Shown: piece by piece, positions 14,005 to 32,000 of the stretch
Layout of the letters: the number at the start of each line of letters is the position of its first letter
How positions within the stretch are numbered: position 1 is the stretch's first letter
NCBI RefSeq assembly: GCF_900232105.1
Contig: NZ_LT934425.1
Span: 2,850,001-2,882,000 of the forward strand
Direction of reading: 5' to 3'
Length of the DNA stretch: 32,000 bases
From: Candidatus Kuenenia stuttgartensis
Lineage (GTDB): Bacteria > Planctomycetota > Brocadiia > Brocadiales > Brocadiaceae
Notes under the pieces: generated by a model
What the model was told of the DNA's origin: nothing
The model's input: the letters and a program-made list of their open reading frames with translations, nothing else
Databases searched by the model: none
Position numbers and translations under genes: made by a program

Positions 14005-14012
14005 GCATAGAC

Positions 14013-15185: not shown

Positions 15186-15536
15186 TTGAAAAAACTTGAT
15201 TTAAGAAAAAAAGCTGATCGATTACGAATTCTTGCACACCCGACAAGGCTGGCAATCCTGGAAGAACTTTCCCGTGGAGCTAAATGTGTCACAGACATAC
15301 AGGATTTGCTTGATGTGCCTCAGTCAAACGTCTCACAGCATTTAACGGCTCTTCGTCATGAACAGATTGTCGATTATCATGAGGACGGCAAACTTAGGTG
15401 TTATTACATTACGCGCCCAAAGCTGGTTGAAAAATTGCTTGCATTCTTATCGGAGGAATATCCTGTGGAGAGACGTTCTCCGGAGTCAGTTCACGGAGAA
15501 GGAAAGAGTCGGGAAAAGGCGTGCTCTCTTCGGTAG
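15186..15536 (+). CDS. ArsR-family transcriptional regulator (paralog 2 of the two-Cys subtype)
   Basis: RLRILAHPTRLAILEELSRGAKCVTDIQDLLDVPQSNVSQHLTALRHEQIVDYHEDGKLRCYYITRPK. The TTG at 15186 has GAGGA 8 nt upstream and aligns with the start of paralog 1 (MNKLDIRDKA versus MKKLDLRKKA). The track start is 15180. Confidence 0.85.
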   Translation: MKKLDLRKKADRLRILAHPTRLAILEELSRGAKCVTDIQDLLDVPQSNVSQHLTALRHEQIVDYHEDGKLRCYYITRPKLVEKLLAFLSEEYPVERRSPESVHGEGKSREKACSLR

Positions 15537-15571
15537 AAAACTTTTATGCATTTTTAGGAGGTAGTTATTGG

Positions 15572-16732
15572 ATGGGTGAAGTGAAAGTTTACTTTGATAA
15601 TAATGCAAGCACTCCAATTGACCCAAACGTGATCGTTGAGATGGAGCCGTTTATCAGGCAATATTATGGCAATCCTTCCAGTGGCCATTGGTTTGGTAAG
15701 AAGGGAAGGGAGGCTGTTGATACGGCAAGAAGACAAGTAGCTGAATTAATCGGGGCGAGTCCTCATGAGATTATCTTTACGAGCGGCGGGAGCGAGTCTA
15801 ATAACCATGCATTAAAAGGTGTCGCTTTTGCCCTTAAAGGAAAGGGGAATCATATTGTTACTTCGGTTGTTGAGCATCCTGCAATAATCAATCCCTGCAA
15901 ATATCTTGAAACAAAGGGATTCAAGGTAACGTATGTTGGCGTGGATGAGTATGGCTGCGTCAATGCCGATGATATTGAAGAAGCGATAATTGATGAGACA
16001 GTTTTAGTTTCGGTGATGCATGCAAACAATGAAACCGGAACTATTCAGCCGATAGCGGAAATTAGCAAGATATGCAGAAAAAGAGGAATTTATTTTCATT
16101 CTGACACGGCACAGTCCGTTGGAAAAATACCAGTGGACGTGAACGAGCTAGGCGTCGATTTGTTGACCATTGCAGGCCATAAATTTCATGCACCCAAAGG
16201 AGTCGGGGCGTTATACATCCGTGAAGGTGTGGACGTGGAACCATTGATTCATGGCGCCAGCCACGAAATGGGCCTGCGGGCAGGGACAGAAAATGTTGCA
16301 GGGGTAGGAGGGCTGGGAAAAGCAAGTCTGATGTCTGCCGTGAGAATGGATGAGTACATTAAAAATATCCGGTATTTGAGAGATTTGCTGCATGAAAAAC
16401 TGAAGGGAATTGCAGCAGTGAAGTTAAACGGCCATCCCACGCAAAGACTTCCTAATACCCTGAATGTGAGTTTTGAGGGCATTGACAGCTCAGCATTGGT
16501 ATCCAAGCTGGAAGACGTCGCTCTCTCAACAGGATCTGCTTGCCATGATCAGGTGAGACGGCCTTCCACTGTACTAACCGCCATGAATATTCCGGCAGAA
16601 TTGGCAATGGGCGCAGTGAGGTTTAGTCTGGGGAGATTCAATACGGAAGATGAGGTAAATTACGTTGTTGATGAAATAAAAAGAGTTATGAGTGAAATAG
16701 GTATTAAAAAGATGAGGGGGGAAGATGTATGA
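15572..16732 (+). CDS. Cysteine desulfurase (NifS/IscS-type, class V aminotransferase)
   Basis: VYFDNNASTPIDP, FTSGGSESNNHALKG, the PLP lysine in AGHKFHAPKGVGALYIR, and the active-site loop STGSACHD. The ATG at 15572 follows AGGAGG. The track start at 15521 overlaps the ArsR gene. Confidence 0.9.
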   Translation: MGEVKVYFDNNASTPIDPNVIVEMEPFIRQYYGNPSSGHWFGKKGREAVDTARRQVAELIGASPHEIIFTSGGSESNNHALKGVAFALKGKGNHIVTSVVEHPAIINPCKYLETKGFKVTYVGVDEYGCVNADDIEEAIIDETVLVSVMHANNETGTIQPIAEISKICRKRGIYFHSDTAQSVGKIPVDVNELGVDLLTIAGHKFHAPKGVGALYIREGVDVEPLIHGASHEMGLRAGTENVAGVGGLGKASLMSAVRMDEYIKNIRYLRDLLHEKLKGIAAVKLNGHPTQRLPNTLNVSFEGIDSSALVSKLEDVALSTGSACHDQVRRPSTVLTAMNIPAELAMGAVRFSLGRFNTEDEVNYVVDEIKRVMSEIGIKKMRGEDV

Positions 16733-17049
16733 AGATTGGAGTTATTATTTCAAGTAATGATGCCGAAACTTGCTGGAATGCCTTACGTTTTGCAAACTTC
16801 TGCCTGTCCCGGGAAGACGCGGTCAAGATATTTTTTACAGGCAAAGGAGTTGATTATCAAAGGATAAGCACTGAGAAGTTCAATACGATTGAGCAGGCGG
16901 AAAAATTTGTGCAAAGCGGGGGAAGGGTTTATGCCTGTGGCACTTGCATCAGATTAAGAAACCAGGAAGGTTCTGAAATGTGTCCTGTTTCTACAATGAA
17001 AGACATGTACGAAATTGTAAAAGAGAGCGATAAAATCGTAACATTCTAG
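16729..17049 (+). CDS. DsrE/DsrF-like sulfur-relay family protein
   Basis: MKIGVIISSNDAETCWNALRFANF...GGRVYACGTCIRLR...CPVSTMKDMYEIVKESDKIVTF. It has a 4-nt ATGA overlap with the desulfurase gene. Confidence 0.75.
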   Translation: MKIGVIISSNDAETCWNALRFANFCLSREDAVKIFFTGKGVDYQRISTEKFNTIEQAEKFVQSGGRVYACGTCIRLRNQEGSEMCPVSTMKDMYEIVKESDKIVTF

Positions 17050-17058
17050 ACAAATTTC

Positions 17059-18775
17059 GTATCTATTCAGCGAAAATAATTTAGAATTTACTTGACAGAT
17101 AATGAGAAAAGCAGGCAGCAAGTATGGTTAGCGATATATAGGGTTGCAGATGCGGTCACTGCAGTCCATAGGAAGTCTTTACAAAGAGAGGCGTGAGGTC
17201 TGTTCAGTGATAGAAATTCGAGCCTTTGTGGTGTGTTATAGAGCGAAAGAAAAGGGTGAAAAAATCTGTGGTATAATAGATGCAGTAGATAATTTCAGGC
17301 TAATTATACAGGTATCATCCATTGACGATAGAGAATATAGACGTAGACGCAACACTCCGGAAAGTAGAGAAGCTACTTTCTGAAGAGAAAGGGCTGTCAC
17401 CGGCGGTGAGGTCAATGATAGAGTTGTTGGTATTATTGATAACACTGCTGGCAGGACGTCTGAACCGGAACAGCCGCAACAGCAGCAAGCCGCCCTCAAG
17501 TGATCCGAATCGCAAGAGAGAAAGCAAGGCGAAGGGTGAAAGGAAGGCAGGCGGGCAAAAGGGCCGTGATGGAGTAACGCTCAAAAAGGTAGACAATCCT
17601 GATGAGGTGGAAGTAATAAAAGTAGACCGGAGGAAGTATCCGCGCAGCAAATACAAGGTGGTAGGTTACGAAGCACGCCAGGTGTTTGATATAAAGATTT
17701 CGCGTGTAGTAACGGAGTATCGTGCAGAGGTAGTTGAGGATGCGAAAGGGAATCGGATTGTAGCGTCATTTCCGGAAGGGGTAACAAAGGCGGTGCAGTA
17801 TGGTCCGGATTTGAAAGCGCATGCAGTCTATATGTCGCAGTATCAATTGATACCCTACAAGAGGATACAGGAGTATTTTGAAGGGCAGATTGGTATACCG
17901 CTGAGTGAAGGTTCTATTTACAACTTTAACAGGGAAGCCTACGAGTCATTGGAACCCTTCGATGTGAGAGCCAGGGAAGAACTTACAAAATCAGAGGTGA
18001 TGCATGTGGATGAAACGGGCATCAACAAGAATGGAGACAGGTATTGGTTGCACAGTGCATCCAATAGTTTGTGGACGTACTTTTTCCCACATGAAAGGCG
18101 TGGAACAGAAGCGATAAATAGTATTGGTATATTACCTGAATTTAGGGGGATTCTTTGCCATGACCATTTGAAGTCGTATTACACCTATAGCAACTGTATG
18201 CATGCGTTGTGTAATGCGCACCACTTGAGGGAATTGGAGGGGGTGTGGGAAGATGATAATAAGCAGGAGTGGGCGAAAGAGATGAAAGCATTACTTAAAG
18301 AGATAAACCGTGCGACAAGCGATGCGGGGGGAATACTGGGAACCGATGAGTCTGAAAAATACCGGCAAAGGTATAGGACGATACTACAAAACGCAGAAGC
18401 CGAAAGCTCTCCTCCTGATGAAACGAACCGTAAGGGAAAAAGGGGTAGGGTAAGAAGGACAAAGGCCCGGAATCTTCTGGAACGATTGAGGAAGTATGAG
18501 GGTGATGTGCTGAGGTTTATGGACAATAAAAATGTCCCCTTTACGAACAATTTGGCAGAAAACGATATCAGGATGACGAAGGTTCAGCAGAAGATATCGG
18601 GCTGTTTTCGTTCTTTGGAGGGAGCGAAAATTTTCTGCCGCATTCGGAGTTATCTCTCGACCTGTCGAAAACAAGGGGTAAATTTGAGCCGGGCATTACA
18701 GATGCTATTCCGTGGTGAATTGCCTGATTTTGCCAGCTCGTAGCGACAGTGGATGAAAATACGCTGAATAGATAC
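17059..18775 (+). mobile_element. IS66-family insertion sequence (1717 bp, single transposase ORF)
   Basis: The terminal inverted repeats are GTATCTATTCAGCG at 17059-17072 and its reverse complement CGCTGAATAGATAC at 18762-18775. There is a perfect 8-bp direct duplication CAAATTTC at 17051-17058 and 18776-18783. An 8-bp TSD is the IS66-family norm. Confidence 0.9.
17322..18743 (+). CDS. IS66-family transposase (TnpC-type)
   Basis: HVDETGINKNGDRYWLH, ILCHDHLKSYY, HALCNAHHLREL and PFTNNLAENDIRMTKVQQKISGCFRS are hallmark IS66 TnpC blocks. It uses a TTG start per the track. Confidence 0.9.
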   Translation: MTIENIDVDATLRKVEKLLSEEKGLSPAVRSMIELLVLLITLLAGRLNRNSRNSSKPPSSDPNRKRESKAKGERKAGGQKGRDGVTLKKVDNPDEVEVIKVDRRKYPRSKYKVVGYEARQVFDIKISRVVTEYRAEVVEDAKGNRIVASFPEGVTKAVQYGPDLKAHAVYMSQYQLIPYKRIQEYFEGQIGIPLSEGSIYNFNREAYESLEPFDVRAREELTKSEVMHVDETGINKNGDRYWLHSASNSLWTYFFPHERRGTEAINSIGILPEFRGILCHDHLKSYYTYSNCMHALCNAHHLRELEGVWEDDNKQEWAKEMKALLKEINRATSDAGGILGTDESEKYRQRYRTILQNAEAESSPPDETNRKGKRGRVRRTKARNLLERLRKYEGDVLRFMDNKNVPFTNNLAENDIRMTKVQQKISGCFRSLEGAKIFCRIRSYLSTCRKQGVNLSRALQMLFRGELPDFASS

Positions 18776-18847
18776 CAAATTTCTGCTAAAACATTCTCAA
18801 AAGAATTATGATTATGAACAATACATTATATAGAGGGATGCAAAGCG

Positions 18848-19465
18848 ATGGACAGTAGCCGAAAGAAACATTGGGAAAATGTTTATGAACAAAAGAAACC
18901 GTCAGAGGTCAGTTGGTACCAGGTTAACCCTGCTGTGTCACTGGAGTTTATCACCTTGGCAAAACCAGACAATGCTGCAAAAATTATTGATGTGGGTGGC
19001 GGTGTGTCTGTCCTTGTGGATGAATTGCTGGAGAAGGGATATCGGGATTTAACCGTTCTGGATATTTCATCAAGAGCTATTCAATATGCTCGGGAGAGAC
19101 TGGGCAGGCGGGCTGAAAATGTATGCTGGATTGAGGCCGATGTAACAGAATATGTCGCGCCCTATCCGTTTGACCTTTGGCATGACAGGGCGGTGTTTCA
19201 TTTCCTGACCGATCCATCGGACAGAAAGAAATATGTTGAGGTATTACAAAATTCTTTGAAAAGGGGAGGGCATTTGATTATCGCCGCTTTTGCAATTGAC
19301 GGCCCAACAAGGTGCAGCGGTCTTGATATTGAACAATACGACGCGGAAAAATTACAAAATGAATTAGGAAGCGAATTCCTTCTGATGGAGGAAAAACAGG
19401 AAATTCATGTTACTCCAGCCAGCAAAGAGCAGAAATTTGGTTTTTTCCGGTTTATGAGAAAATAA
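18848..19465 (+). CDS. Class I SAM-dependent methyltransferase (small, TehB/TPMT-like architecture)
   Basis: HWENVYEQKKPSEVSWYQ, IIDVGGGVSVLVDELLEKGYRDLTVLDISSRAI, and WHDRAVFHFLTD. Confidence 0.8.
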   Translation: MDSSRKKHWENVYEQKKPSEVSWYQVNPAVSLEFITLAKPDNAAKIIDVGGGVSVLVDELLEKGYRDLTVLDISSRAIQYARERLGRRAENVCWIEADVTEYVAPYPFDLWHDRAVFHFLTDPSDRKKYVEVLQNSLKRGGHLIIAAFAIDGPTRCSGLDIEQYDAEKLQNELGSEFLLMEEKQEIHVTPASKEQKFGFFRFMRK

Positions 19466-19557
19466 TTAAATGGTATAGGAAGCAGAGAGGTGCATTCCTG
19501 TGCTGTATTATCAGCGATATCTATTATTTAAGGCCAATAACTATTTACATTTAACCT

Positions 19558-20394
19558 ATGCTCCTGGGAGTACATTGTTCAATAAAAGGCAGTTTGCATA
19601 ACGCCTTCAATGAAGCCGCGTCTTTGGGAATAGACACCTTTCAAATCTTTACGAAAAACCAACGCCAATGGAAAGAAAAAATCGTCGGTCCGGCGGAAAA
19701 AACAATTTTCAGAGAAACATTGCGGCAATCAAACATAAAAACAATTTTTTCACACGCATCCTATCTTATCAATCTTGCCACCAGCGATAGCAGAATTCAC
19801 GCACTTACCCACAATTCCCTCCTGGGAGAGATTCAACGATGTGATGACCTTGGCATTGCGTCTATTATTATACATCCCGGTTTCACAAAAAATACCGGCA
19901 AACAAACCGGCATGAAAAACGTAATCAAAATGATAAAATCAGTACTCAAAAAAACAAACAACTCTCCCGTAAAAATCCTGATGGAAAACACTGCCGGCCA
20001 GGGGTCAAGCATTGGTTATCATTTCAAGCAGTTACAGCAATTAATTGAGGGAATCGGTTCTGGAAGAATAGGCGTCTGTTTTGATACATGCCATGCTTTC
20101 GCAGCGGGCTATGATATAAGGACGAAGATCGGATTTGAAACAACGATGGAGGAATTGGATGCCACGGTAGGCCTCAACTCCCTTTATGCCATTCATTTAA
20201 ATGATTCGAAAGGGGCTTTGGGTAGTAAAATTGACCGGCACGAACATATCGGGCAAGGCGCTATAGGACTGGAACCCTTCAGACAGATTATGAATACAAT
20301 GAAACACATACCGAAAATACTGGAAACACCAAAAGAGGGCGGCATGGATGTGAAAAATTTAAATATTTTAAAAGGATTGGTTGAAAATCGTTGA
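19558..20394 (+). CDS. nfo: Deoxyribonuclease IV (endonuclease IV)
   Basis: LLGVHCSI, HASYLINLA, IIHPG, ENTAGQGSSIG, CFDTCHAFAAGYD, HLNDSK and DRHEHIGQGAIG are the metal-ligand blocks of Nfo. Confidence 0.9.
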   Translation: MLLGVHCSIKGSLHNAFNEAASLGIDTFQIFTKNQRQWKEKIVGPAEKTIFRETLRQSNIKTIFSHASYLINLATSDSRIHALTHNSLLGEIQRCDDLGIASIIIHPGFTKNTGKQTGMKNVIKMIKSVLKKTNNSPVKILMENTAGQGSSIGYHFKQLQQLIEGIGSGRIGVCFDTCHAFAAGYDIRTKIGFETTMEELDATVGLNSLYAIHLNDSKGALGSKIDRHEHIGQGAIGLEPFRQIMNTMKHIPKILETPKEGGMDVKNLNILKGLVENR

Positions 20395-20673
20395 TCCCAA
20401 AAAATCAAAGGGGATGTACACTGGTAAGAGAGAATATTTTTGCTTCATCACTTATCCTCCTCAAGACATTAATTCGCAACGAAAACCACACGTAAATATC
20501 GCTAGAATTCATAATATATTATTGTTAGACTAGATATCTTTAATAGCTACAGGCAAATGTAAATCTGGCTTTTCACAAATCCTTAGTAGTGCCATGCAAT
20601 CTTCCCCAACAAGTAGTGAATACATCGTATAAAAAACTTTCCTATTAATATTATGAAGAAGTAACGTTATCCA

Positions 20674-20886
20674 GTGGAAAAAAACAACGAAAAAAAACGA
20701 AAGGGAATAGTTCACATAAATCATAAATATTGCAAACGCTGCGGTATCTGCGTAAATCTTTGCCCGGTGAAGAATCTGGAAATTAAAAACAAAATATTAA
20801 TGGAATTGAATAAATGTATTGTCTGCAGAACCTGCCAGCGTTATTGCCCGGACATAGCCATTGAAATAGAGGAAATAAATGTCTAA
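20674..20886 (+). CDS. 2-oxoacid:ferredoxin oxidoreductase delta subunit (2x[4Fe-4S] ferredoxin)
   Basis: CKRCGICVNLCP and CIVCRTCQRYCP. GTG start. It overlaps the alpha gene by 8 nt. Confidence 0.8.
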   Translation: MEKNNEKKRKGIVHINHKYCKRCGICVNLCPVKNLEIKNKILMELNKCIVCRTCQRYCPDIAIEIEEINV

Positions 20887-21904
20887 ACAATTATTGCAGG
20901 GAAACCAGGCAATTGTGTTGGGATCTGAGGTTGCAGGCCTGACATTTTTTGCCGGCTACCCCATTACTCCGGCATCGGAAATAATCCACAACCTGGTGAG
21001 CAGGAAAAAAGTAAAAGTACTGCAGATGGAAGATGAAATTTCCTCATTAAGCGCCGTTATCGGTGCGTCACTCGCCGGCCTTAAATCAATGACAGCCACG
21101 TCCGGCCCTGGATTCTCTTTAATGCAGGAAAACATCGGTCTCGCACACATGATGGAAGTGCCTCTGGTGATTGTTAATGTACAAAGAGTAGGGCCCAGCA
21201 CCGGCATGCCTACCTTGCCCGCGCAGGGAGATGTTATGCAATGTATATATGGCAGCCACGGCGATTATTTTCCTATAGTATTTTATCCCAATTCCGTGAC
21301 GGAGCTTTATACTCATACGATAACGGCATTTAATGCCGCCGAAGAATCGTTAAGCCCTGTTATACTGCTTAGTGACGGCTACATAAGCCACCTCTCTGAG
21401 ACAATTGCCCCCCCTGTTAATTTTGTGATCAAAAATCGGGAACGGCTTCCGTTTGGCTGCGGGAATCGTCATTTCACCGGTTTATCACACTATGATTCTC
21501 AACCAAAAACCTCGGATGTTGACAATTACCGAAAACTTATTGCACGTCTGCATGAAAAACAATTACGCATTGCGGGGCAATATAACTATTACGAATACAT
21601 TGAATGCCCGAAGAAAACCGACACATTACTTATCTCTTATGGAGCTTTATCAAGGGTGGCGTATTATTTCAAAAATGATTTTTCATTATTCCGGCCAATA
21701 TTGATGTTTCCGGTTTTTGACGACCTTAAGCGCATCGCATCCCAATATAAAAAAATTATCGTTATGGAAATGAATACAGGCCAATATGCCCGTGAAATTG
21801 AACGTTTATTACACCGCGAAGTAACTTTGATCCCTATCCTCGGCGGGCGCATAAGCCTGGAAGAAATAAAGAGTGTACTCTCTGAAGTGATTAAAAAATG
21901 CTAA
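20879..21904 (+). CDS. 2-oxoacid:ferredoxin oxidoreductase alpha subunit
   Basis: LLQGNQAIVLGSEVAGLTFFAGYPITPASEI, TATSGPGFSLMQE and VQRVGPSTGMPT. Confidence 0.85.
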   Translation: MSKQLLQGNQAIVLGSEVAGLTFFAGYPITPASEIIHNLVSRKKVKVLQMEDEISSLSAVIGASLAGLKSMTATSGPGFSLMQENIGLAHMMEVPLVIVNVQRVGPSTGMPTLPAQGDVMQCIYGSHGDYFPIVFYPNSVTELYTHTITAFNAAEESLSPVILLSDGYISHLSETIAPPVNFVIKNRERLPFGCGNRHFTGLSHYDSQPKTSDVDNYRKLIARLHEKQLRIAGQYNYYEYIECPKKTDTLLISYGALSRVAYYFKNDFSLFRPILMFPVFDDLKRIASQYKKIIVMEMNTGQYAREIERLLHREVTLIPILGGRISLEEIKSVLSEVIKKC

Positions 21905-21926
21905 AAAACAAGGGTGTCGTTTTATC

Positions 21927-22697
21927 ATGGAAAACAATGCTATAAAAGACGTCCAGTTCAAACGTTATCTGAAACTCGAACTGCTGCCAACGCCATGGTG
22001 CGGGGGTTGCGGAAATGGTATTGTGCTGAAAACCATATGCCAGGCCTTTTATGAACTCAACTACCCTTTGCAAGGCACGGTAGTCGTTTCGGGGATTGGC
22101 TGCGCAGGGAGAAGTGCGGGATTTTTTAATCTTGATTCAGTACATACCACCCATGGCAGGGCAATTCCCGTAGCAGAAGGTATTAAATATGCGAACGAAA
22201 AGCTTAATGTGGTAGTCGTGAGCGGGGACGGCGACCTGATGGGTATTGGCGGCAACCATCTTTTGCATGCCATCCGGAGAAACACAAACATTACTGTTAT
22301 TTGTTATGCAAATGAAATCTATGGCATGACCGGCGGCCAGGTTTCTCCCATCACCCCAAGGGGTTGCGAGACGTTAACCACGCCGGGAGGAAATCCTGAT
22401 AATCCCATGGATATACAATATCTGTTTAAAGGCAACAAAAGTTTCTTTGCACGCACCACGGCATATCACCTCAGCCACATGAGAAAATGCATCGTGGCGG
22501 CCTTGCAATTTAACGGCTTTTCTTTTGTCGAAGCAAGAACCATGTGTCTCGTCAATTACGGACGCCGGTTAGGGTACAAAAACTCCAATGCAATGTTGAA
22601 CCACTATAAGGAATTTTACAAAATTAATGATAATGCTGAAGAACTGGCGTCAAATGAGATTGGTATATTACAACACCGCAATCGGCCTGATACATAA
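21927..22697 (+). CDS. 2-oxoacid:ferredoxin oxidoreductase beta subunit (TPP-binding)
   Basis: WCGGCGNGIV, SGIGCAGR, VVSGDGDLMGIGGNH and IYGMTGGQ. Confidence 0.85.
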   Translation: MENNAIKDVQFKRYLKLELLPTPWCGGCGNGIVLKTICQAFYELNYPLQGTVVVSGIGCAGRSAGFFNLDSVHTTHGRAIPVAEGIKYANEKLNVVVVSGDGDLMGIGGNHLLHAIRRNTNITVICYANEIYGMTGGQVSPITPRGCETLTTPGGNPDNPMDIQYLFKGNKSFFARTTAYHLSHMRKCIVAALQFNGFSFVEARTMCLVNYGRRLGYKNSNAMLNHYKEFYKINDNAEELASNEIGILQHRNRPDT

Positions 22698-22738
22698 TTA
22701 GTTGTCAACAAAAAATACTTCATCAAAAGTGGAATTTA

Positions 22739-23038
22739 TTACCACACTTTTCTCAGCGTCTTTAGGCTTTTCAAATAGTCTTCGTACTCCAGGTTTGCCT
22801 CGATTTTGTACTCTTTTAATATATCCATCATCTTTGCTATTGAGACACCTGCAATATGCGCAGCTTTTTCGAGAGATGCCTCTGATTTTTTATATTTTTC
22901 TATGGCAAGCATAACCCGCCCGAGGTCTACCAGCTCTCTTATTTTTTTTGAGACATCTTCATTTTCCTCTTTTGCCAGTGAGGAAAGAAATTTGTAATCA
23001 GTATCACCTATGCGGATACTCAAGGTCTTTGTTGCCAT
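22739..23038 (-). CDS. UPF0175-family antitoxin-like protein
   Basis: AIEKYKKSEASLEKAAHIAGVSIAKMMDILKEYKI matches the UPF0175 pattern (YxxGxxSLxKAAxxAGxS). The N-terminus MATKTLSIRIGDTDYKFL looks RHH-like. Its start lies 1 nt after the upstream gene's stop. Confidence 0.7.
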   Translation of the reverse strand: MATKTLSIRIGDTDYKFLSSLAKEENEDVSKKIRELVDLGRVMLAIEKYKKSEASLEKAAHIAGVSIAKMMDILKEYKIEANLEYEDYLKSLKTLRKVW

Positions 23039-23039
23039 T

Positions 23040-23540
23040 TTATGTACCTCCTCTTAATAGTTTTGTAGCATCGCGAATTATTTCTTTACTATATCGTCCT
23101 ATTAATTGTAATTTCTGTAATTTAAGAAGCGCTGTTTCGCTATCGATAAGCGTTTTTTCAAATGCTCTTATCAAAATAGTTATTGCAGTAACAAAATCTA
23201 ACTTGAGCATTTTGCATGCCCTTATCGCATTTCTATCATCGGTCGCCACCATGGATATCCCTTTCTCGATCGATAAAATAATTGCCTCTGCTTCCCCTCT
23301 ATCGATGCTAAAGTCTTCCATAATATTTTTTGTCTGTGCAATGCCTTTCACCTTAAAAACTTCGATTTTATGATCATTGATTAGTTTTTCTATAGCAGGT
23401 ACTTCAATTCTGCGATCTTCGCATACTTCCGTCATAACTGTTTCTGGAATCAAGACTTTACCTCTAAAATTAGAGACAACCATGTCGAGCATGTCTATTT
23501 TAGCGAGAAGTATTAATGTGGATGAATCAAATACTATCAT
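23040..23540 (-). CDS. DUF3368-family PIN-like putative toxin
   Basis: MIVFDSSTLILLAKIDMLDMVVSNFRGKVLIPETVMTEV is the usual N-terminus of the DUF3368/COG2405 PIN-like proteins that pair with UPF0175. Confidence 0.7.
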   Translation of the reverse strand: MIVFDSSTLILLAKIDMLDMVVSNFRGKVLIPETVMTEVCEDRRIEVPAIEKLINDHKIEVFKVKGIAQTKNIMEDFSIDRGEAEAIILSIEKGISMVATDDRNAIRACKMLKLDFVTAITILIRAFEKTLIDSETALLKLQKLQLIGRYSKEIIRDATKLLRGGT

Positions 23541-24004
23541 TCACTAATTGTATGACAAATGTAATACAAATGTCAATATTAGAGATAATTGATTTTGGTA
23601 TTCAATTTATTTGCCTGACAATCCATGCCGTGTAACATCTTGTGCGCCATGCCGGTTGACATAAATAAACAATAAGTATTACAAGAAATGAAATTGCACC
23701 CTCTCTCAACGACACGGCTTTTTTTAAAAGCCGGATTGCTACAATATTTCTTATAGTGAAACCAAAATTTTTAATAAATATTTTGAACTCTCATTGAAAA
23801 GAGGGTATAAACCAGATAACACGCTAGCGTTAAAATAGAGTTTTCATCCCCCCCCAAAAACAACATAACAATTGCATCAACCCGACCCTTACGGGTAGTG
23901 CGTTTTCTTAAAATTTGTAGTCCGCAGCGGGTGTTTGGGTTTATGAACGTACGCCCCCTTTTTCCCTGCTGCAGGTTATGTAAAACGTTAAAATCTGATT
24001 TATT

Positions 24005-26458
24005 ATGAATGCAACTGCAGTTTCAACCAAAATGCCGGGAAGCTGGAAATGGCAGGTAATCCCTGTTGCATTTATGGTTATATGGTCATGTATTATCTTT
24101 GTTAACACGTTGCGGAATAATTTTGTTTATGATGATTCTGTTACGATTGTTAATAACCATTTGATTAAGAATTGGGATAATTTCCGGACGTTGTTTTCCT
24201 TTCAGTATTTCATGCTTTCCGGAGAGATAAGCTATCGTCCTATGGTTACGTTTACCTATTTTCTTGACTATTCTCTTTGGGGAGAAAACCCATCGGGGTA
24301 TCACTTCACTAATCTCCTCTTTCATATTGCAAATGTAACAGTATTCTACTTTTTTATTAAAAAGATAACGCGGATACATTCATTGGCGTTTATTTCAGCA
24401 TTATTGTTTGCCACCCATCCCGTAATAACAGAAACAGTTAATTCTATCAGCTATCGCGAAGATATCCTTGCCGCCTTCTTTTATCTAATGACGTTTATCC
24501 TGTTCTTAAAAATCGACGATGGCTTGAAGAAGAAAGGCGCATTTTATCTGTGTTATTCCGGTTCTTTGACTTTCTATGCACTGTCGTTATTTTCAAAAGA
24601 GATGGCAGTAACTCTGCCGGTAATGCTCGTGATATATACATTCTTTTTTCCATCAAAAAATAATCCTTTTAAAGAGTGTGTTAAAAAAATGAAAGGCGTC
24701 TATATTGGATATTTTTTAGTCACGTGCTGCTATTTAATTATTCAGTTTTGGGTATTTAAGGATGTGTCTATTAATCTGAGCGAGTCCGGGCAAAGCATCT
24801 TTGTGATGTTTAAGGTACTTGCCTCGTATATAAAGCTTTTGTTCCTACCTTTTGACCTTAATGCTGATTATGTGATTCTGCCGGTATTGGCAGATGTGGT
24901 ATCGTTTTCAATCTCTGTCGTTTTGATAATTGTACTGATTATTGTTTTATTGCGTATAGGGAAAGGAAACAAATTATTCTGTTTTTTTGCAGTGTGGTTT
25001 TTTGTCACCCTTTCGCCGGTGTCAAATATAATCCCGTTAAGCAATATCATGTCAGAGCGTTACATGTATATTCCCCTCATGGGATTTTCGGGCGCTGTGG
25101 GTGTACTGTTCTGGAAGGGTGTTTCAGAGAATATTTTTGCGAAGATATGCTTTGGCGTGATTTTAATCGTTTTTGCCTTTATAAGTATTTCCCGGAATGT
25201 CGTATGGCATGATGAATTTGCTCTGTGGCATGATGCCCTGGCAAGAGAACCTGACAGTGCACGCGCACACCACAACCTTGGGGTGGTATATAATTCAAAA
25301 GGGATGTATGAAAAGGCGGAGTATGAGTATAAAAAGACCCTGGAAATAAAACCGAATGATGCCGGGGCGTATTATAATCTGGGGAATTTATACGAACGAA
25401 AGGAACTGATTGGCGATGCTATCGCAGCATATGAAAAGGCAATACAATCAAATCCCTACCATGCAGATGCATACAATAATATAGGAAATATTTATAAAAA
25501 AAAGAAACAGTATCCTGCGGCAGTGAAAATGTATGAAAAAGCGATCCGGTGCAATCCGTTCGATTTCCGCTATCACAGTAATTTAGGGCTTATCTATCTT
25601 GAAACAAAAAATTACCGTGAGTCTGTTGACGCCTTTCTGAAAGCATTAAAAATCGCACCCGATAAATCTTCAACGCACAATTCACTGGGAAATGTTCTTA
25701 AAGAAATGGGAGATTTTGATGGCGCGGAAGAGGCATACAAAACAGCGCTTCAATTAGACCCTGCCGATGCAAATATTCACAATAGTTTAGGGATGTTATA
25801 CACAAACATGAAACAATTTGATAAAGCAATGAGAGAGTTTGATACGGCGATCCGGCTCGACCCGAAAATGGCAAGCGCATATAACAATTTGGGAATTGCC
25901 TATGCAAATAAAGGCGACGGGGAAAAAGCGGCAGAGGCATTAAACACAGCGGTAGCCCTTGGATTTGACGGCGCGGATGTGCATAATAATCTGGCATGTG
26001 TGTACATGACAATGGGAATGACGGATAATGCCATCCGGGAACTTGACATCGTCCTGGAATATGACCAAACAGATTGCTATGCGCATTGCAATCTTGGCAT
26101 TGCCTATCTATCCAAAAAAAATGTTGATAAGGCTATTTCTGAGTTTGAAGAGGCTATTAAAATCAATGCGGATGACGCGGATTTTCACCATTACCTTGGC
26201 AATGCCCTTATGGAAAAAGGAAGATATGGAGAGGCAGTTGACGCATTTGCACGAGCAATAGAAATTAATCCTGAAAATTCCTCGGTGCACAAGGCGCTCG
26301 GCGTTGTGTATGCGAATTATTTCAACAACACCCGGAAAGCATTATTTCATTTAAAAGAAACACTGCGGTTAAATCCAAATCAGCCAATGGCAGGCGAAAT
26401 AGAAGCGGCTATCGTTACATTAAGCGGCGGTAGCGATGGCATGGCGCAAAAGCCATGA
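24005..26458 (+). CDS. TMTC-like polytopic membrane glycosyltransferase (GT-C/PMT_2-DUF1736-like) fused to about a dozen TPR repeats
   Basis: The N-terminal roughly 400 aa has many TM helices, with FVYDDSVTIVNNHLI, YRPMVTFTYFLDYSLWG and GYHFTNLLFHIANV. The C-terminal half is tandem TPRs (A..YNLGN.Y...G....A...Y..A....P). Confidence 0.8.
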   Translation: MNATAVSTKMPGSWKWQVIPVAFMVIWSCIIFVNTLRNNFVYDDSVTIVNNHLIKNWDNFRTLFSFQYFMLSGEISYRPMVTFTYFLDYSLWGENPSGYHFTNLLFHIANVTVFYFFIKKITRIHSLAFISALLFATHPVITETVNSISYREDILAAFFYLMTFILFLKIDDGLKKKGAFYLCYSGSLTFYALSLFSKEMAVTLPVMLVIYTFFFPSKNNPFKECVKKMKGVYIGYFLVTCCYLIIQFWVFKDVSINLSESGQSIFVMFKVLASYIKLLFLPFDLNADYVILPVLADVVSFSISVVLIIVLIIVLLRIGKGNKLFCFFAVWFFVTLSPVSNIIPLSNIMSERYMYIPLMGFSGAVGVLFWKGVSENIFAKICFGVILIVFAFISISRNVVWHDEFALWHDALAREPDSARAHHNLGVVYNSKGMYEKAEYEYKKTLEIKPNDAGAYYNLGNLYERKELIGDAIAAYEKAIQSNPYHADAYNNIGNIYKKKKQYPAAVKMYEKAIRCNPFDFRYHSNLGLIYLETKNYRESVDAFLKALKIAPDKSSTHNSLGNVLKEMGDFDGAEEAYKTALQLDPADANIHNSLGMLYTNMKQFDKAMREFDTAIRLDPKMASAYNNLGIAYANKGDGEKAAEALNTAVALGFDGADVHNNLACVYMTMGMTDNAIRELDIVLEYDQTDCYAHCNLGIAYLSKKNVDKAISEFEEAIKINADDADFHHYLGNALMEKGRYGEAVDAFARAIEINPENSSVHKALGVVYANYFNNTRKALFHLKETLRLNPNQPMAGEIEAAIVTLSGGSDGMAQKP

Positions 26459-27181
26459 TAGGCGAATAAGTAGTTCATGTCATATCAATTTAAAATTTCA
26501 TAACTCTTGATCTGGTGGAATTTGATTTGATACCAGATTAAATACAAGACGCAAATTTGTACATGGCAGGACGTGCGTATAGCCTGTCCAGTCTCCATGT
26601 TCCATTACAGGGTTTAAAAACAGGTGTCATGCCATTTCCCACTCAGCAATGGTGAAGCTTTTTAATCCTTGCCTATCCCACTGGAATTAATAGGCTTAGG
26701 TACTTTTTGACTAAAAAAAATACTTCAGAAGCTCTGAGAGTTGAGGCGAGATAGGTGGGCGCTTGCCATTTGGACAAAGACGGAGCATTTTTTTCGAAAT
26801 ATCCTTTTCAAGCGCACAGATTTTCTCTACAATATCGCACAGCGCCACATTTTTGTTTGGGAAAATGGGCTGGTGCGCGTGTTATTTACCCCAAAAATTG
26901 ATTATCCTGCCCTGTGATTTTATGGCCAGGGAAAATTTTACAAAAGCCCTATCAGTGCAATTTTGCATTCGGCACAGTCTATACATTACATTTAGGTACT
27001 TTTTGGCGAAAAAACACTTCGGGAGTTTTGAATTGCCGTTATTGCCGTTATTGATGTATAATGCTTAGTAATTTCGGAAATTCTTAAAAAAACTAAAACG
27101 GTTGTAAAATATCGTTTTTTACCGCAGTATAAGAGGTTTTAATGCGGCGTTAACATTGCACTGGCTGCAATGAAAATGTCC

Positions 27182-27209
27182 TTGACAAGATATTCTACCG
27201 CTGTATAAT
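27182..27209 (+). promoter_or_regulatory. Near-consensus sigma70-type promoter upstream of the HAO-like gene
   Basis: TTGACA at 27182-27187, a 16-nt spacer, then TATAAT at 27204-27209. This implies a leader of roughly 185 nt before the ATG at 27402. Confidence 0.45.
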
Positions 27210-27401
27210 GTTGAAAATTTTTATGCCTTGAAATTTTGCATGAAAATCTTTTAAAAATTTGTTTAATAAAGAACCTGGGAAGGGGGTGGTTAGGCTAAAG
27301 ATTATTTAATGTTCCTGCTTTTACCTGTGATTCTCGCTTGTGTCACTTAGGTAATAACCGTAGTTTTAAAAGTGTTTAAAGTAAAGAAAGGAGAAGATGT
27401 A

Positions 27402-29012
27402 ATGTTTGAAATTTTTAAGAAACCATTGTCCAGGATTGTAGGTGCGACGTTTGCCTTTGCAGGCGTAACCTTGCTAGCTTGCGCTATGGAAAATGGTGTT
27501 GCAATGGCTGAAGGACCAACTTTTCAGGACGTAGCATCACAGGTATTCGGCCAGCCAGTTGGCCCGGATAATGATGGCACCTTGTATATATTTGGGTTGA
27601 CCGCTAAATATACTGAACCTGAATATGTTGATGGACGTGGGCCATACAAGTCTTTTTTGAAGATGTTACCGTCGATTCGTTGGTACGATCCGGAGCATTA
27701 TTGGACAAATGGAAGCCAGACAGAAGGGGTATTCAAGAACGAAGAATGCGTATTGTGCCATACAGTACAAACTCCGACGATTGTGAACGATTGGAAGCAA
27801 AGTTCGCATGGCAGCAAGGACATAAGGAGAGGGATTGGCATAAAGAAGGATGGAAAACCGGTTGAAGATTTGGTTGGTTGTGCTGATTGTCATGGTAATA
27901 ACCACCAGAAGCTTGAAATGCCAACCTATAAGCTCTGTAACGACTGTCATCCAAAAGAAACAGCGGAACACAGGGCTGGCGGTTTGGGGTCTCATACTCA
28001 TGCATACACAGTTAACGTGTTGGAATTTTCATGGCACGTAGGGAAACCTGCTGAAGAGGTTACTGGCTGTGCGCATTGTCATGCTATTGCGGAAAACAGA
28101 TGTTCCGGTTGCCACACAAGGCACAAATTTGACCCGGCTGAGGCAAGAAAACCGACCGCTTGCAGGGTTTGTCATATGGGTATAGACCATGATGAATGGG
28201 CTATGTACAATACCTCTATCCATGGAGCATTGTATGAAGCAGAATCAGCCAGGATGGACTGGGGCAAGAAGTTGAAGAAGGGTAACTACAGGGTGCCGAC
28301 CTGTGCTTATTGCCATATGCAAAACGGCGATCACAATCCGCAGAGGTTTGGAACGATCTATAGCGATATGGGCATGTTCCAGGTAGACCGCGGGGCACCA
28401 AAACATAAAGCGAAAAGAGACTCTTGGATTAAGTTATGCCAGGACTGTCATTCGCCAAGGTTCGCAGCGGATAAACTCAAAGAAATGGACGCAGGTGTTA
28501 ATTTGAGTTTTACAAAGTGGAGAGAGGCAGCTGCGGTTATCGTGGGTTGTTATCTTGATGGTGTAGTTGACCCAATGCCTGAAGGATCAGCTCCTGATTG
28601 GTACGGTCATTATACTTTCAGCTTGTTACCAGGCGGAGATCCAAGGTTCTACGCGACTTCTAACTTAGAGCGTTTAGGGCTGGAAATGATTTGTTACCTG
28701 ACCGGTAACGTTTATAAGGCATATGCACATATGTCTATGTACAATCAAACGTACGGAAATGGAAGCGCCTTTGAGCAGGACAGAAAATTGGTTGAAATCA
28801 AAACCGAAGCAGCTAAGTTGAGAAGGTTTGCAGCTATTGAGAAAAAGATCGGTTTAGAACACAAATCTGCTGATTTCTGGAAACATGGTGAATATCTTGA
28901 TTTACTCCCAGGCTGGAAGAGAAAACCTGGCGACGTGGATGTTGAATGGTTCAAGAGAACTGATATTCCTCACCGTGCTAATGCAGATGCTGGTGTAGAA
29001 ATACATCACTAA
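27402..29012 (+). CDS. Octaheme hydroxylamine-oxidoreductase-like protein (HAO/HOX/HDH family, oxidising type)
   Basis: Eight CxxCH motifs (CVLCH, CADCH, CNDCH, CAHCH, CSGCH, CRVCH, CAYCH, CQDCH). The signal peptide is MFEIFKKPLSRIVGATFAFAGVTLLACAMENGVAMA. A late Tyr lies in NQTYGNG, residue 451 counted from the ATG at 27402. That ATG follows AAAGGAGAAG. The track GTG start at 27372 is less likely. Confidence 0.95.
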   Translation: MFEIFKKPLSRIVGATFAFAGVTLLACAMENGVAMAEGPTFQDVASQVFGQPVGPDNDGTLYIFGLTAKYTEPEYVDGRGPYKSFLKMLPSIRWYDPEHYWTNGSQTEGVFKNEECVLCHTVQTPTIVNDWKQSSHGSKDIRRGIGIKKDGKPVEDLVGCADCHGNNHQKLEMPTYKLCNDCHPKETAEHRAGGLGSHTHAYTVNVLEFSWHVGKPAEEVTGCAHCHAIAENRCSGCHTRHKFDPAEARKPTACRVCHMGIDHDEWAMYNTSIHGALYEAESARMDWGKKLKKGNYRVPTCAYCHMQNGDHNPQRFGTIYSDMGMFQVDRGAPKHKAKRDSWIKLCQDCHSPRFAADKLKEMDAGVNLSFTKWREAAAVIVGCYLDGVVDPMPEGSAPDWYGHYTFSLLPGGDPRFYATSNLERLGLEMICYLTGNVYKAYAHMSMYNQTYGNGSAFEQDRKLVEIKTEAAKLRRFAAIEKKIGLEHKSADFWKHGEYLDLLPGWKRKPGDVDVEWFKRTDIPHRANADAGVEIHH

Positions 29013-29057
29013 GTTTCATGTACCTGATTTAATTTTCAGGATATATATGTTGTCGAG

Positions 29058-29104
29058 CAATGAGGGTAGCAGAGGTCAATTTGCTACCCTCATTGTATTT
29101 ATTC
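29058..29104 (+). terminator. Strong rho-independent terminator after the HAO-like gene
   Basis: CAATGAGGGTAGCA at 29058-29071 pairs perfectly with TGCTACCCTCATTG at 29082-29095 (14 bp, 10-nt loop), followed by TATTTATT. Confidence 0.75.
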
Positions 29105-29311
29105 GGTACTTTTATGTGCGTTGTATCTTTATAAATGAGTTAGGTTTTTAGGGAAATTCAAGATAAACTACAGATTGTGCAGAGATAAATACATAATCTG
29201 TGTAATCCGTAGTTTCAATCCTTTTTTGCCTGTTTGAAACCTTGTATCTCCAGGCAATTAAGTATTAAGAGAAAATTACTTGTTTTAAAATGAAAGAAGG
29301 AGGTTTAAATT

Positions 29312-30559
29312 ATGAGCATCACTACTTCAAAAATAAGAACTCCTGCGTATGAAAAATTATCGGTGGCAGATGGTTTTTCTGCTAAAATGGGGCATTTTGG
29401 CCGCTTTGGCGGAAAGTTTGTGCCGGAAACGATTATGCCCTCTCTCGACCAATTGGAACAAGCATATAATGATGCGAAAAACGATCCGACATTCAATACA
29501 GAACTGGAATACTATTTGAGAGAGTATGTGGGGCGTCCTTCAACCCTTTATTATGCGGAAAGGCTGACAAAAAAACTTGGCGGCGCTAAAATATATCTCA
29601 AAAGGGAGGATTTAAATCATACCGGAGCACATAAAATTAATAATACGATTGGGCAAATATTGCTTGCTTTGAGGATGGGAAAAAAGCGCATTATTGCTGA
29701 AACTGGCGCTGGACAGCATGGCGTCGCCACGGCTACTGCTGCTGCAATGTTTGGTGTTCAATGTGATGTATATATGGGCGAAGAAGACATGAGACGTCAG
29801 TCGTTGAATGTTTTTAGAATGAAGCTGCTCGGAGCAAAGGTTATTCCCGTCGTCAGTGGTTCGAAAACATTAAAAGATGCTACAAATGAGGCTTTGAGGG
29901 ACTGGATGGGGTCGGTAAAACACACTCATTACATTATTGGTTCTGTTGTTGGTCCTCATCCTTACCCAACAATGGTAAGAGATTTCCAGTTAGTAATAGG
30001 ACGAGAAGCAAAAAAGCAGATATTGGAAAAGGAAAACCGGCTGCCGGATTATCTTATTGCCTGTGTTGGTGGCGGTAGTAATTCAATAGGATTGTTTCAT
30101 CCATTCATTGACGACAAAGAGGTAAAAATGATTGGCGTAGAAGCGGGAGGCACTGGCCCTGGAGTAGGCCAGCATGCATCGACTCTGACAAGCGGGAAAG
30201 TAGGTGTGTTGCATGGAAGTGTAAGCTATGTTCTTCAGGACGATGATGGGCAAACATTGCCGGTGCATTCAATTTCTGCCGGTTTGGACTATCCCGGCGT
30301 TGGTCCCGAGCACAGCTATTTGAAAGACATTGGAAGGGCTGATTATGTTTCGATAACTGACGAAGAAGCGGTAAGCGCCTTTCAGGAATGTGCCCGATTA
30401 GAAGGGATTATTCCAGCCCTTGAGGCCGCACATGCTATTGCGTATACAATGAAACTTGCTCCTGTTTTGAGTAAGGACAAATTGATTATTGTTTGTTTAT
30501 CCGGTACTGGAGATAAGGATTCCTTTGAAGTGGCAAAAAAACTAGGCTACGTCATCTAG
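29312..30559 (+). CDS. trpB: Tryptophan synthase beta chain
   Basis: [35 protein letters not shown] (PLP lysine) and [14 protein letters not shown] lies 8 nt before the ATG. Confidence 0.95.
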
Positions 30560-30668
30560 TGGAATACCACATATAAAATAATCGTAAGTAAATAAGGTAT
30601 TTAATTCGAAGTAAAGCACAGTCTCTATTTGATTTTTAGAGTAGAGAAATCGTTATAGTTTTGTTGAG

Positions 30669-31511
30669 ATGATTCCAATGAACAGGATTGATAAAAAATT
30701 TGAAGAATTAAAAAGAAAAAAGGAGCCTGCTTTTATTCCGTTTATTACGGCCGGAGACCCTGACATCGAAACAACAGAGGACTTGATTCTTGCTTTTGAG
30801 AAAAAAGGGGCAGATATTATTGAGCTTGGTGTACCATTTTCCGACCCTATTGCAGATGGGCCTGTTATTCAGGCATCATATCACAGGGCATTGGGAAAAG
30901 GGGTAAAGGTTGCGCAAATATTCGATATGATTTCGAGGCTTCGCAGTAAAACTCAAATACCTGTAGTCGGAATGATTTCTTATAGTATTGTGTACAAATT
31001 TGGAAGTAAAGCTTTTGTTGAAATGGCTTTAAAGGCAGGGTTTGACGGATTGACTATCCCAGACCTTCCCATTGAAGAAAATGAAGAAATATTTGAAATC
31101 TCATCCAAAAATGATTTAAAAATTGTTTGTTTTGTGGCCCCAACAACAACGAATCAACGAATGAACCTTATTACTCAAAGAACGCAGGGGTTTTTGTATT
31201 ATATTTCGGTGGTGGGGATTACCGGAGCAAGGGATATGTTGCCCGATGATATTGTACAAAATATTAATAAACTTAAACAGCTTACTAGTATTCCTATTGT
31301 AGTAGGTTTTGGGGTATCCACAGCCAAACAAGCAAGTATGGTCGGAAAGATCGCAGAAGGCGTAATTGTTGGCAGCGCTATTGTAAGAGAAATTGAAAAA
31401 TATGAACACGAACTTCATGAGAAGCGGATAGAAAATGTTGGTAATTTTGTTGAGGAGTTAGTTATTGGGACAAAGAATTTGCCGAAAACACCTTTGGTAA
31501 GCATTGGTTAG
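30669..31511 (+). CDS. trpA: Tryptophan synthase alpha chain
   Basis: FIPFITAGDPDIETT, IELGVPFSDPIADGPVIQ and VGFGVSTAKQ. The start may be the second ATG at 30678 (MNRIDKKF). Confidence 0.93.
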   Translation: MIPMNRIDKKFEELKRKKEPAFIPFITAGDPDIETTEDLILAFEKKGADIIELGVPFSDPIADGPVIQASYHRALGKGVKVAQIFDMISRLRSKTQIPVVGMISYSIVYKFGSKAFVEMALKAGFDGLTIPDLPIEENEEIFEISSKNDLKIVCFVAPTTTNQRMNLITQRTQGFLYYISVVGITGARDMLPDDIVQNINKLKQLTSIPIVVGFGVSTAKQASMVGKIAEGVIVGSAIVREIEKYEHELHEKRIENVGNFVEELVIGTKNLPKTPLVSIG

Positions 31512-31543
31512 TTGAAGTTTTATTTTTAATATCATTTAAAAAA

Positions 31544-31714
31544 AAGAAAAAACGTAACTATTCAGCGTGTTTGAGCAAAAAACATTATATGTGGTAGAGA
31601 ATGCTTGTTTTGTATTTTCAGACTATATGTGGTAGTACAACCTGTGGCTAAATTTTATGTTTTTAGTCATTTTATGCCATATATGGTAGTCGCAAAATCA
31701 CGCTGAATAGTTAC
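31544..31714. mobile_element. 171-bp MITE with IS66-like ends
   Basis: GTAACTATTCAGCGTG at 31544-31559 and its exact reverse complement CACGCTGAATAGTTAC at 31699-31714. 13 of the first 14 nt equal the IS66 terminus GTATCTATTCAGCG at 17059. The interior carries TATATGTGGTAG twice (31576-31587 and 31614-31625) and TATATGGTAG at 31680-31689. Confidence 0.6.
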
Positions 31715-31738
31715 AAGAAAGAAAAAACAGGATATATT

Positions 31739-32000
31739 TTGGATCAGAACAAAGAAAAAGGGTACACTCAATATCAAAAGAAGGTTATTAAGGGATTTTA
31801 TGAAAATAAAGACCTGCGACTAATACAAAACCTTGGAGAGCTGGTTTCTGATATGTACCTGATAACGGACGAAAAAAAGAAGGATTCCGGCTGGAAGAGA
31901 ATTAAGAAAATACTTGCCGATTTGAAGGTGCACCCTAACGAAGTGGAATATTTGACTAAAGAGAGAAACCTTGCGGTAATTTCAAAAAAAATAGAAGAAA
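31739..32000 (+). CDS. Hypothetical protein, N-terminal part (runs off the right edge)
   Basis: The frame is open from 31667 to the window end. A TTG at 31739 has AGGA 7 nt upstream and gives LDQNKEKGYTQYQKKVIKGFYENKDLRLIQNLGELVSDMYLITDEKKKDSGWKRIKKILADLKVHPNEVEYLTKERNLAVISKKIEE. I recognise no domain. Confidence 0.3.
   Translation, partial: MDQNKEKGYTQYQKKVIKGFYENKDLRLIQNLGELVSDMYLITDEKKKDSGWKRIKKILADLKVHPNEVEYLTKERNLAVISKKIEE

Follow-up and report, generated by a model that had tools for sequence, protein, structure and literature searches.

Hydroxylamine oxidase gene hox (kustc1061) of Candidatus Kuenenia stuttgartiensis, its conserved promoter and 3′ hairpin, and its linkage to trpBA

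The window analysed here is a stretch of 32,000 nucleotides (nt) of Candidatus Kuenenia stuttgartiensis DNA (NCBI RefSeq assembly GCF_900232105.1, contig NZ_LT934425.1, positions 2,850,001 to 2,882,000), and the gene at issue, hox, occupies positions 27402..29012 of its plus strand. The gene is preceded by a consensus promoter and followed by a strong hairpin, past which lie trpB and trpA on the same strand (Table 1). It almost certainly encodes the hydroxylamine oxidase HOX (kustc1061) of K. stuttgartiensis, an enzyme whose structure and activity are already published, with five PDB entries; the gene finding is thus not new, and it adds no new biology.

The open reading frame (ORF) listing and translation of the window give a protein of 536 amino acids. 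The frame is open from a GTG at 27372 to the stop at 29012, and the translation was taken from the ATG at 27402, which is separated by an 8-nt spacer from a ribosome-binding site (RBS; AGGAG, 27389..27393) and which reproduces the exact 536-residue protein of the databases. The precursor has exactly eight CxxCH motifs, starting at C116, C160, C179, C223, C234, C254, C301 and C346, and no variant haem motifs were found. Its N-terminus, MFEIFKKPLSRIVGATFAFAGVTLLACAMENGVAMA, shows the layout of a Sec signal peptide, in which a basic n-region is followed by a hydrophobic core and closed by A-x-A, and the PDB 4N4J chain as deposited begins directly past that A-x-A, at E37 (EGPTF...). Both the eight motifs and the signal peptide had been described in the earlier note, which was made from the sequence of the window alone, and all of its numerical statements on the gene proved correct.

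The protein is identified as kustc1061 because residues 37-536 equal residues 1-500 of PDB 4N4J chain A at 500/500 positions in a PDB sequence search, and because the full precursor is an exact entry in NCBI and UniProt (HAO_KUEST, 'NO-producing hydroxylamine oxidase [Candidatus Kuenenia stuttgartiensis]'). The 4N4J chain is titled 'hydroxylamine oxidoreductase' and comes from Candidatus Kuenenia stuttgartiensis as well. These matches settle the assignment of the paralog, which the earlier note had left to such a comparison. With the published K. stuttgartiensis HOX (PDB 4N4J-4N4M, 4RWM) the window shares both the protein and the flanking genes, with no difference; in strain CSTR1 the same protein is KsCSTR_43280 (PMC11897245). 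Two Pfam families match it, PF13447 Multi-haem_cyto (E = 3e-38) and PF22142 Hao_C (E = 2e-34). An exact-sequence look-up found the precursor encoded on 152 contigs of up to 4.4 Mb, complete genomes among them, and in CP049055.1 (4.33 Mb) and GCA_900232175.1 the identical HOX has the same neighbouring genes as in the window. Over positions 17402..32000 the window is 100.000% identical to the GCA_900232175.1 contig (14,599 nt); for three further K. stuttgartiensis assemblies, the identity is 99.86-99.94% (99.86% for CP049055.1). The gene had been proposed to mark both the organism and its anammox metabolism, and this identity over 14.6 kb bears the proposal out: hox shows the window to be DNA of K. 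stuttgartiensis and its source to be an organism that performs anammox, and both facts are already published. Nothing was found that speaks against the HOX identity.

By alignment, HOX is an octahaem enzyme of the hydroxylamine oxidoreductase (HAO) family and of its oxidising type, in which a tyrosine cross-link forms the P460 cofactor. In the literature, this cross-link separates the oxidative from the reductive members of the family. The peptide AYAHMSMYNQTYGNG begins at HOX residue 440, and its tyrosines are Y441, Y447 and Y451. In HMMER alignments, in which tyrosine positions were counted by hand, the counterparts of Y451 are residue 467 of the Nitrosomonas europaea HAO (NeHAO) chain 4FAS (...GGWTY, numbered as in that chain) and Tyr462 of the hydrazine dehydrogenase (HDH) 6HIF. 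The porphyrin-binding tyrosine is named in a 2026 preprint as Tyr467 in NeHAO and as Tyr449 in the Brocadia fulgida enzyme. Literature text searches gave no relevant paper tying 'Tyr451' to kustc1061 or to P460, so that the basis for assigning the residue is the alignment with the chains of 4FAS and 6HIF. Since Tyr451 aligns with the cross-linking tyrosines of both NeHAO and HDH, the assignment to the oxidising P460 type, itself already known, is judged correct, and the number 451, which the earlier note had given for the cross-linking tyrosine of HOX, agrees with it.

Other features of the active site point the same way. D262/H263 of HOX (GIDHDEW) pairs with D267/H268 of NeHAO in the HMMER alignment, and in the structures of kustc1061 and NeHAO, bound NH2OH is in contact with the Asp and with a His close by (PMC6457333). 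Y451, D262 and H263 are invariant in 80/80 related loci from bacterial genomes, all but three of which have eight CxxCH motifs. Of the exceptions, two are truncated by the end of their contig and one (L057) has seven. Haem 4 is the active-site haem of HAO-family enzymes in the literature, and it was assigned to the fourth CxxCH by the family rule that haem numbers follow motif order. The CxxCH motifs of HOX align with those of 4N4J, 6HIF and 4FAS. Met323 of HOX may replace an active-site tyrosine of NeHAO (Tyr334 in mature and Tyr358 in precursor numbering); in the HMMER alignment, Y334 of NeHAO pairs with Y320 of HOX, not with M323.

In the proposed mechanism, the precursor would be exported by its Sec signal peptide and cut after Ala36, the destination in anammox bacteria being the anammoxosome, and eight c-type haems would be attached at the eight CxxCH motifs. 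In the homotrimer, Tyr451 of one subunit would be covalently joined to haem 4 of the next to give the P460 cofactor, a linkage expected to favour electron removal from the substrate. Papers on kustc1061 describe the homotrimer and the Tyr-haem cross-link, and solved structures exist for the identical sequence. Hydroxylamine would bind haem 4 under Asp262/His263 and undergo a three-electron oxidation to nitric oxide (NO); literature on the exact protein has kustc1061 oxidising NH2OH to NO (including PMC11897245). The electrons would then exit through a 24-haem network and pass to small soluble cytochromes, for example kustc0563, whose gene lies at another place in the genome. In the literature, the HOX trimer is such a 24-haem relay, and kustc0563 accepts its electrons efficiently whereas the near-identical kustc0562 does not. 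The trimer, the chemistry of the cross-link, NO as the product and the redox partner are taken from the literature, while the sequence identity, the motifs and the tyrosine and Asp/His alignments come from the present analysis. The role proposed for HOX is to return hydroxylamine leaked from hydrazine synthase to the pathway (literature, including PMC11897245), which it would do by recycling it into NO, and HOX ranks third in abundance among the proteins of the proteome (PMC11897245). That kustc0563 is encoded elsewhere agrees with the remark of the earlier note that no cytochrome partner adjoins hox, whose neighbours are a TPR protein and trpBA.

Among solved relatives, the HOX of B. fulgida (PDB 6T5E) is an ortholog that aligns from end to end (1096 bits) and has the same TYGNG tyrosine motif; it is ~87% identical and differs by one extra residue in the 139-150 loop. 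Like the hox of the window, the Brocadia orthologs have this promoter and hairpin, and trpBA as their neighbours. NeHAO (PDB 1FGJ, 4FAS) shares the eight haems, the P460 cross-link at Tyr467 and Asp267/His268, but its similarity is distant (E = 2e-49). The genes also differ in their surroundings: a nitrifier hao gene sits with c554 and cM552 cytochrome genes, whereas the hox of the window adjoins trpBA without an adjacent cytochrome gene.

The resemblance is closer to HDH (kustc0694), which has the octahaem HAO fold, the cross-linking tyrosine and the Asp/His pair, and whose structure 6HIF is the closest distinct solved relative of HOX (E = 8e-111). The sole NCBIfam match of HOX is moreover the HDH model, so that the gene might be taken to encode an enzyme converting N2H4 to N2. 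Against that equivalog (NF052343), however, HOX scores 412.8 bits where the cutoff is 900, the alignment shows extra insertions in HDH relative to HOX, the substrate of HDH is hydrazine, and the protein of the window is identical to HOX, not to HDH. Identity to kustc1061 at 100%, together with the sub-threshold score, rules an HDH out and leaves it with practically no probability. Nor is there any real likelihood that the gene product is a reductive HAO-like paralog without the cross-link, of the HAOr/kustc0458 or epsilonproteobacterial Hao type. Such proteins belong to the same family, and 6H5L, a Kuenenia paralog without the tyrosine, matches HOX residues 77-309 (E = 9.5e-44), but reductive paralogs have His or Trp at the cross-link position (literature), where HOX has Tyr451 aligned with the cross-linking tyrosine, and this alignment rules them out. 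The best homologues are the HOX proteins of Kuenenia and Brocadia, and neither of the findings by which the earlier note would have given up its reading, a misaligned tyrosine or best homologues of the reductive or epsilonproteobacterial kind, was obtained.

For HOX itself, the debate concerns the direction in which it works, and here the published evidence in part weighs against hydroxylamine oxidation as its role. A fractionation study ties nitrite-reducing activity to HOX, which co-elutes with that activity in size-exclusion and ultrafiltration fractions, reduces nitrite at 0.18 U/mg with methyl viologen, and is down-regulated in reactors fed NO instead of nitrite (PMC11897245). HOX is also very abundant and conserved in all anammox genomes (PMC11897245), as could be expected if it ran mainly in reverse in vivo and were the long-sought Kuenenia nitrite reductase (NO2- to NO), with NH2OH oxidation as a side activity. 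This is nevertheless improbable. In the same study, the activity did not track HOX through anion exchange (PMC11897245); NirS correlates better with nitrite-reducing activity than HOX does, and mild, physiological reductants leave the P460 cofactor in its oxidised state, a behaviour in favour of oxidation (PMC12485887). The invariant cross-linking tyrosine is in addition a family marker of oxidative tuning, in keeping with HOX as a hydroxylamine oxidase.

The promoter upstream of hox, TTGACA-16-TATAAT, is the only site in the region to match the sigma-70 consensus at 12/12 positions. The same perfect sequence lies upstream of hox in ~50 orthologous loci that cover every anammox genus sampled (Kuenenia, Brocadia, Jettenia, Loosdrechtia, Scalindua and deep-branching Brocadiales), and it is retained even in Scalindua, whose HOX has only 54-58% identity. 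In these loci, an A-rich stretch precedes the -35 element, and 83-250 nt separate the end of TATAAT from the hox start codon. There is thus strong comparative support for this site being the real hox promoter, and what had been called a near-consensus promoter before hox is a full match. A promoter that is perfect and kept across genera fits the rank of HOX as the third most abundant protein. It would drive an hox mRNA with a long leader and a strong hairpin past the stop codon; we infer the use of the promoter, the length of the leader and termination at the hairpin, whereas the conservation of promoter and hairpin is observed.

The leader contains a motif akin to an extended Shine-Dalgarno sequence. 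In an alignment of 28 Brocadiaceae leaders, the block GAAGGGGG(G)TGG, which lies ~115 nt upstream of the hox start, is invariant together with the RBS, and in many Scalindua loci a related sequence, GAAGGGAGGTGAT, occurs shortly past the -10 element. No conserved ORF follows the motif. Leader Shine-Dalgarno sequences that stabilise mRNA are known from Bacillus as STAB-SD elements, and by analogy the motif may stabilise the hox mRNA. A riboswitch-like leader element was considered and rejected, as RNAalifold on the 28 leaders gave only a hairpin of 5 pairs (-1.3 kcal/mol). Rfam gave no match in the whole window at the gathering threshold and none in 26459..29320 at E <= 1.

The hairpin downstream of hox had been described as a terminator with a 14-bp stem, and its perfect 14-nt arms are indeed found at 29058..29071 and 29082..29095, within a stem of 17 pairs when G-U is included. 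The fold of the 108-nt 3′ region 29013..29120 reaches -43 kcal/mol (z = -7.3 against shuffles). In the window, the tail past the stem, TATTTATTCGG, is a weak T-run that passes the terminator scan without being a clean U-run, while Scalindua orthologs have T6-T8 directly past the stem. The hairpin lies 22-65 nt past the hox stop in 51 distinct orthologous loci, across which the 17-pair helix is 93% paired compared with 86% when the columns are shuffled. The helix has a covariation score of 0.253, higher than in any of 500 shuffles or any slid control, with covariation in the outer and the inner pairs. The stem core GGGTAGC/GCTACCC is almost invariant across anammox families, even though HOX falls to 54% identity; one locus has the full compensatory change GGGCAGC/GCTGCCC, and wobble intermediates occur in several. 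The pattern appears once per hox locus and nowhere else in 84 loci of anammox genomic DNA, and once in the window, where zero would be expected. As a signal specific to anammox bacteria, however, it was rejected, since a metagenome scan for GAGGGTAGCA..TGCTACCCTC gave >120 matches. Only 15 of these adjoin hox or trpB, and most are one identical hairpin with its flanks on contigs of ~50% G+C without hox or trpB.

Between this hairpin and trpB, the window has a second, imperfect hairpin with arms at 29165..29183 and 29197..29215, followed by CCTTTTTTGCC (29165..29227 in all). It is part of a longer Kuenenia spacer, into which another ~160 nt are inserted in Kuenenia sp. Bin_40 (L001).

The linkage of hox to trpBA is conserved too. 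From Kuenenia to Scalindua, trpB-trpA lie on the same strand past hox in every orthologous locus with downstream DNA (among loci L001-L070), and they are absent from paralog loci. Measured from where the hairpin core ends, the trpB ATG is 21-29 nt away in nearly all Scalindua-type loci (in one, the first in-frame trpB ATG is at 62 nt), 18-49 nt away in a group with 64-65% identity and 40-77 nt away in most of the Brocadia loci; for the window, the figure is 222 nt. The short gaps hold just the T-run and the RBS and therefore leave no room for a promoter before trpB. In the window, no plus-strand promoter-like site was found in 29013..29311. The simplest reading is that transcription of trpBA passes through the hox hairpin, at least in the compact lineages, and the hairpin may then be a leaky terminator or an attenuator inside a hox-trpBA unit. 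In K. stuttgartiensis, the second hairpin with its T-run and the longer spacer could accommodate a promoter that was not recognised. The gene had been called monocistronic in the earlier note, bracketed by a promoter and a terminator; the promoter and the hairpin stand, while monocistronic is doubtful given the conserved order hox-hairpin-trpB-trpA and the lack of a promoter-like site before trpB in the window.

Taken from sequence comparison, a broader proposal can be put forward tentatively, as a possibility with less than an even chance. Here, hox would stand at the head of a hox-hairpin-trpB-trpA unit so ancient that it predates the divergence of the anammox families, trpBA would be expressed from the very strong hox promoter by partial read-through of the hairpin, and the hairpin core and the leader motif would be functional RNA elements. 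If so, these two elements would set the stability of the mRNA and the ratio of hox to trpBA expression. Nothing on the linkage of hox to trpBA or on the conserved regulatory shell of promoter, leader motif and hairpin was found in the searchable literature, and what these add is modest. The promoter, the Shine-Dalgarno-like motif, the 3′ hairpin and the linkage could help studies of the very high expression of catabolic cytochromes in anammox bacteria, and for these bacteria, which are genetically intractable, the same conserved elements are possible expression signals, both strong and portable.

Table 1. Features of the hox region, in coordinates of the 32,000-nt window.
Feature	Position	Strand	Basis or remark
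Nearest other multihaem ORF, 390 amino acids: MtrC/MtrF-like domain, NapC/NirT, paired CxxCH	14001..15173		13 kb upstream of hox
IS66-family transposase (DDE_Tnp_IS66 + DUF6444)	17322..18743		8.7 kb upstream of hox
2-oxoacid:ferredoxin oxidoreductase, two subunits	20879..21904 and 21927..22697		~5 kb upstream of hox
UPF0175 + DUF3368 pair, toxin-antitoxin-like	22739..23540	-	Between the oxidoreductase genes and the TPR protein
TPR-rich membrane protein, 817 amino acids	24005..26458		Upstream of hox
Putative sigma-70-type promoter, TTGACA-16 nt-TATAAT, 12/12 consensus	27182..27209	+	Promoter scan; conserved upstream of hox
Predicted 5′ untranslated leader, ~185 nt	27210..27401	+	Start placed from the promoter, ~27216
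Shine-Dalgarno-like motif GAAGGGGGTGG in the hox leader	27279..27289	+	Invariant in 28 Brocadiaceae leaders
Sec signal peptide, residues 1-36, ends VAMA	27402..27509	+	Sequence features and 4N4J chain start
Mature HOX (kustc1061), residues 37-536 and stop, eight CxxCH	27510..29012	+	4N4J_A identity, Pfam matches, HAO_KUEST
Fourth CxxCH, C223-A-H-C-H227, catalytic haem 4 (P460)	28068..28082	+	Motif position and family numbering rule
Asp262-His263, distal acid/base pair above the catalytic haem	28185..28190	+	Alignment with NeHAO GVDHNNW; invariant
Tyr451 codon TAC, cross-links to haem 4 of the adjacent subunit	28752..28754	+	Alignment; invariant
Terminator-like hairpin past hox	29057..29096	+	Scan, fold, conservation in 51 distinct orthologous loci
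trpB, tryptophan synthase beta	29312..30559	+	TIGR00263, 634 bits against a cutoff of 392
trpA, tryptophan synthase alpha	30669..31511	+	TIGR00262, 272 bits against a cutoff of 102; synteny

Further upstream of hox, the window also holds a sugar-phosphate isomerase-like gene and a methyltransferase gene. Homologues of the 2-oxoacid:ferredoxin oxidoreductase genes lie directly downstream of a tyrosine-bearing, 56%-identical HOX paralog in a Brocadia metagenome-assembled genome (L063, 11895..14388). Past the multihaem ORF come a cysteine desulfurase-like gene (15521..16732) and a DsrE-like gene (16729..17049). Besides the IS66-family element, K. stuttgartiensis genomes have further transposases on the flanks of the region, and downstream of trpA the strains are not alike. 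Many metagenome-assembled genomes have hox-trpBA on a short contig, 4.5-5 kb long, whose start lies ~350-650 nt upstream of hox (L005-L030), probably because assemblies break around a segment with high conservation among co-occurring strains.

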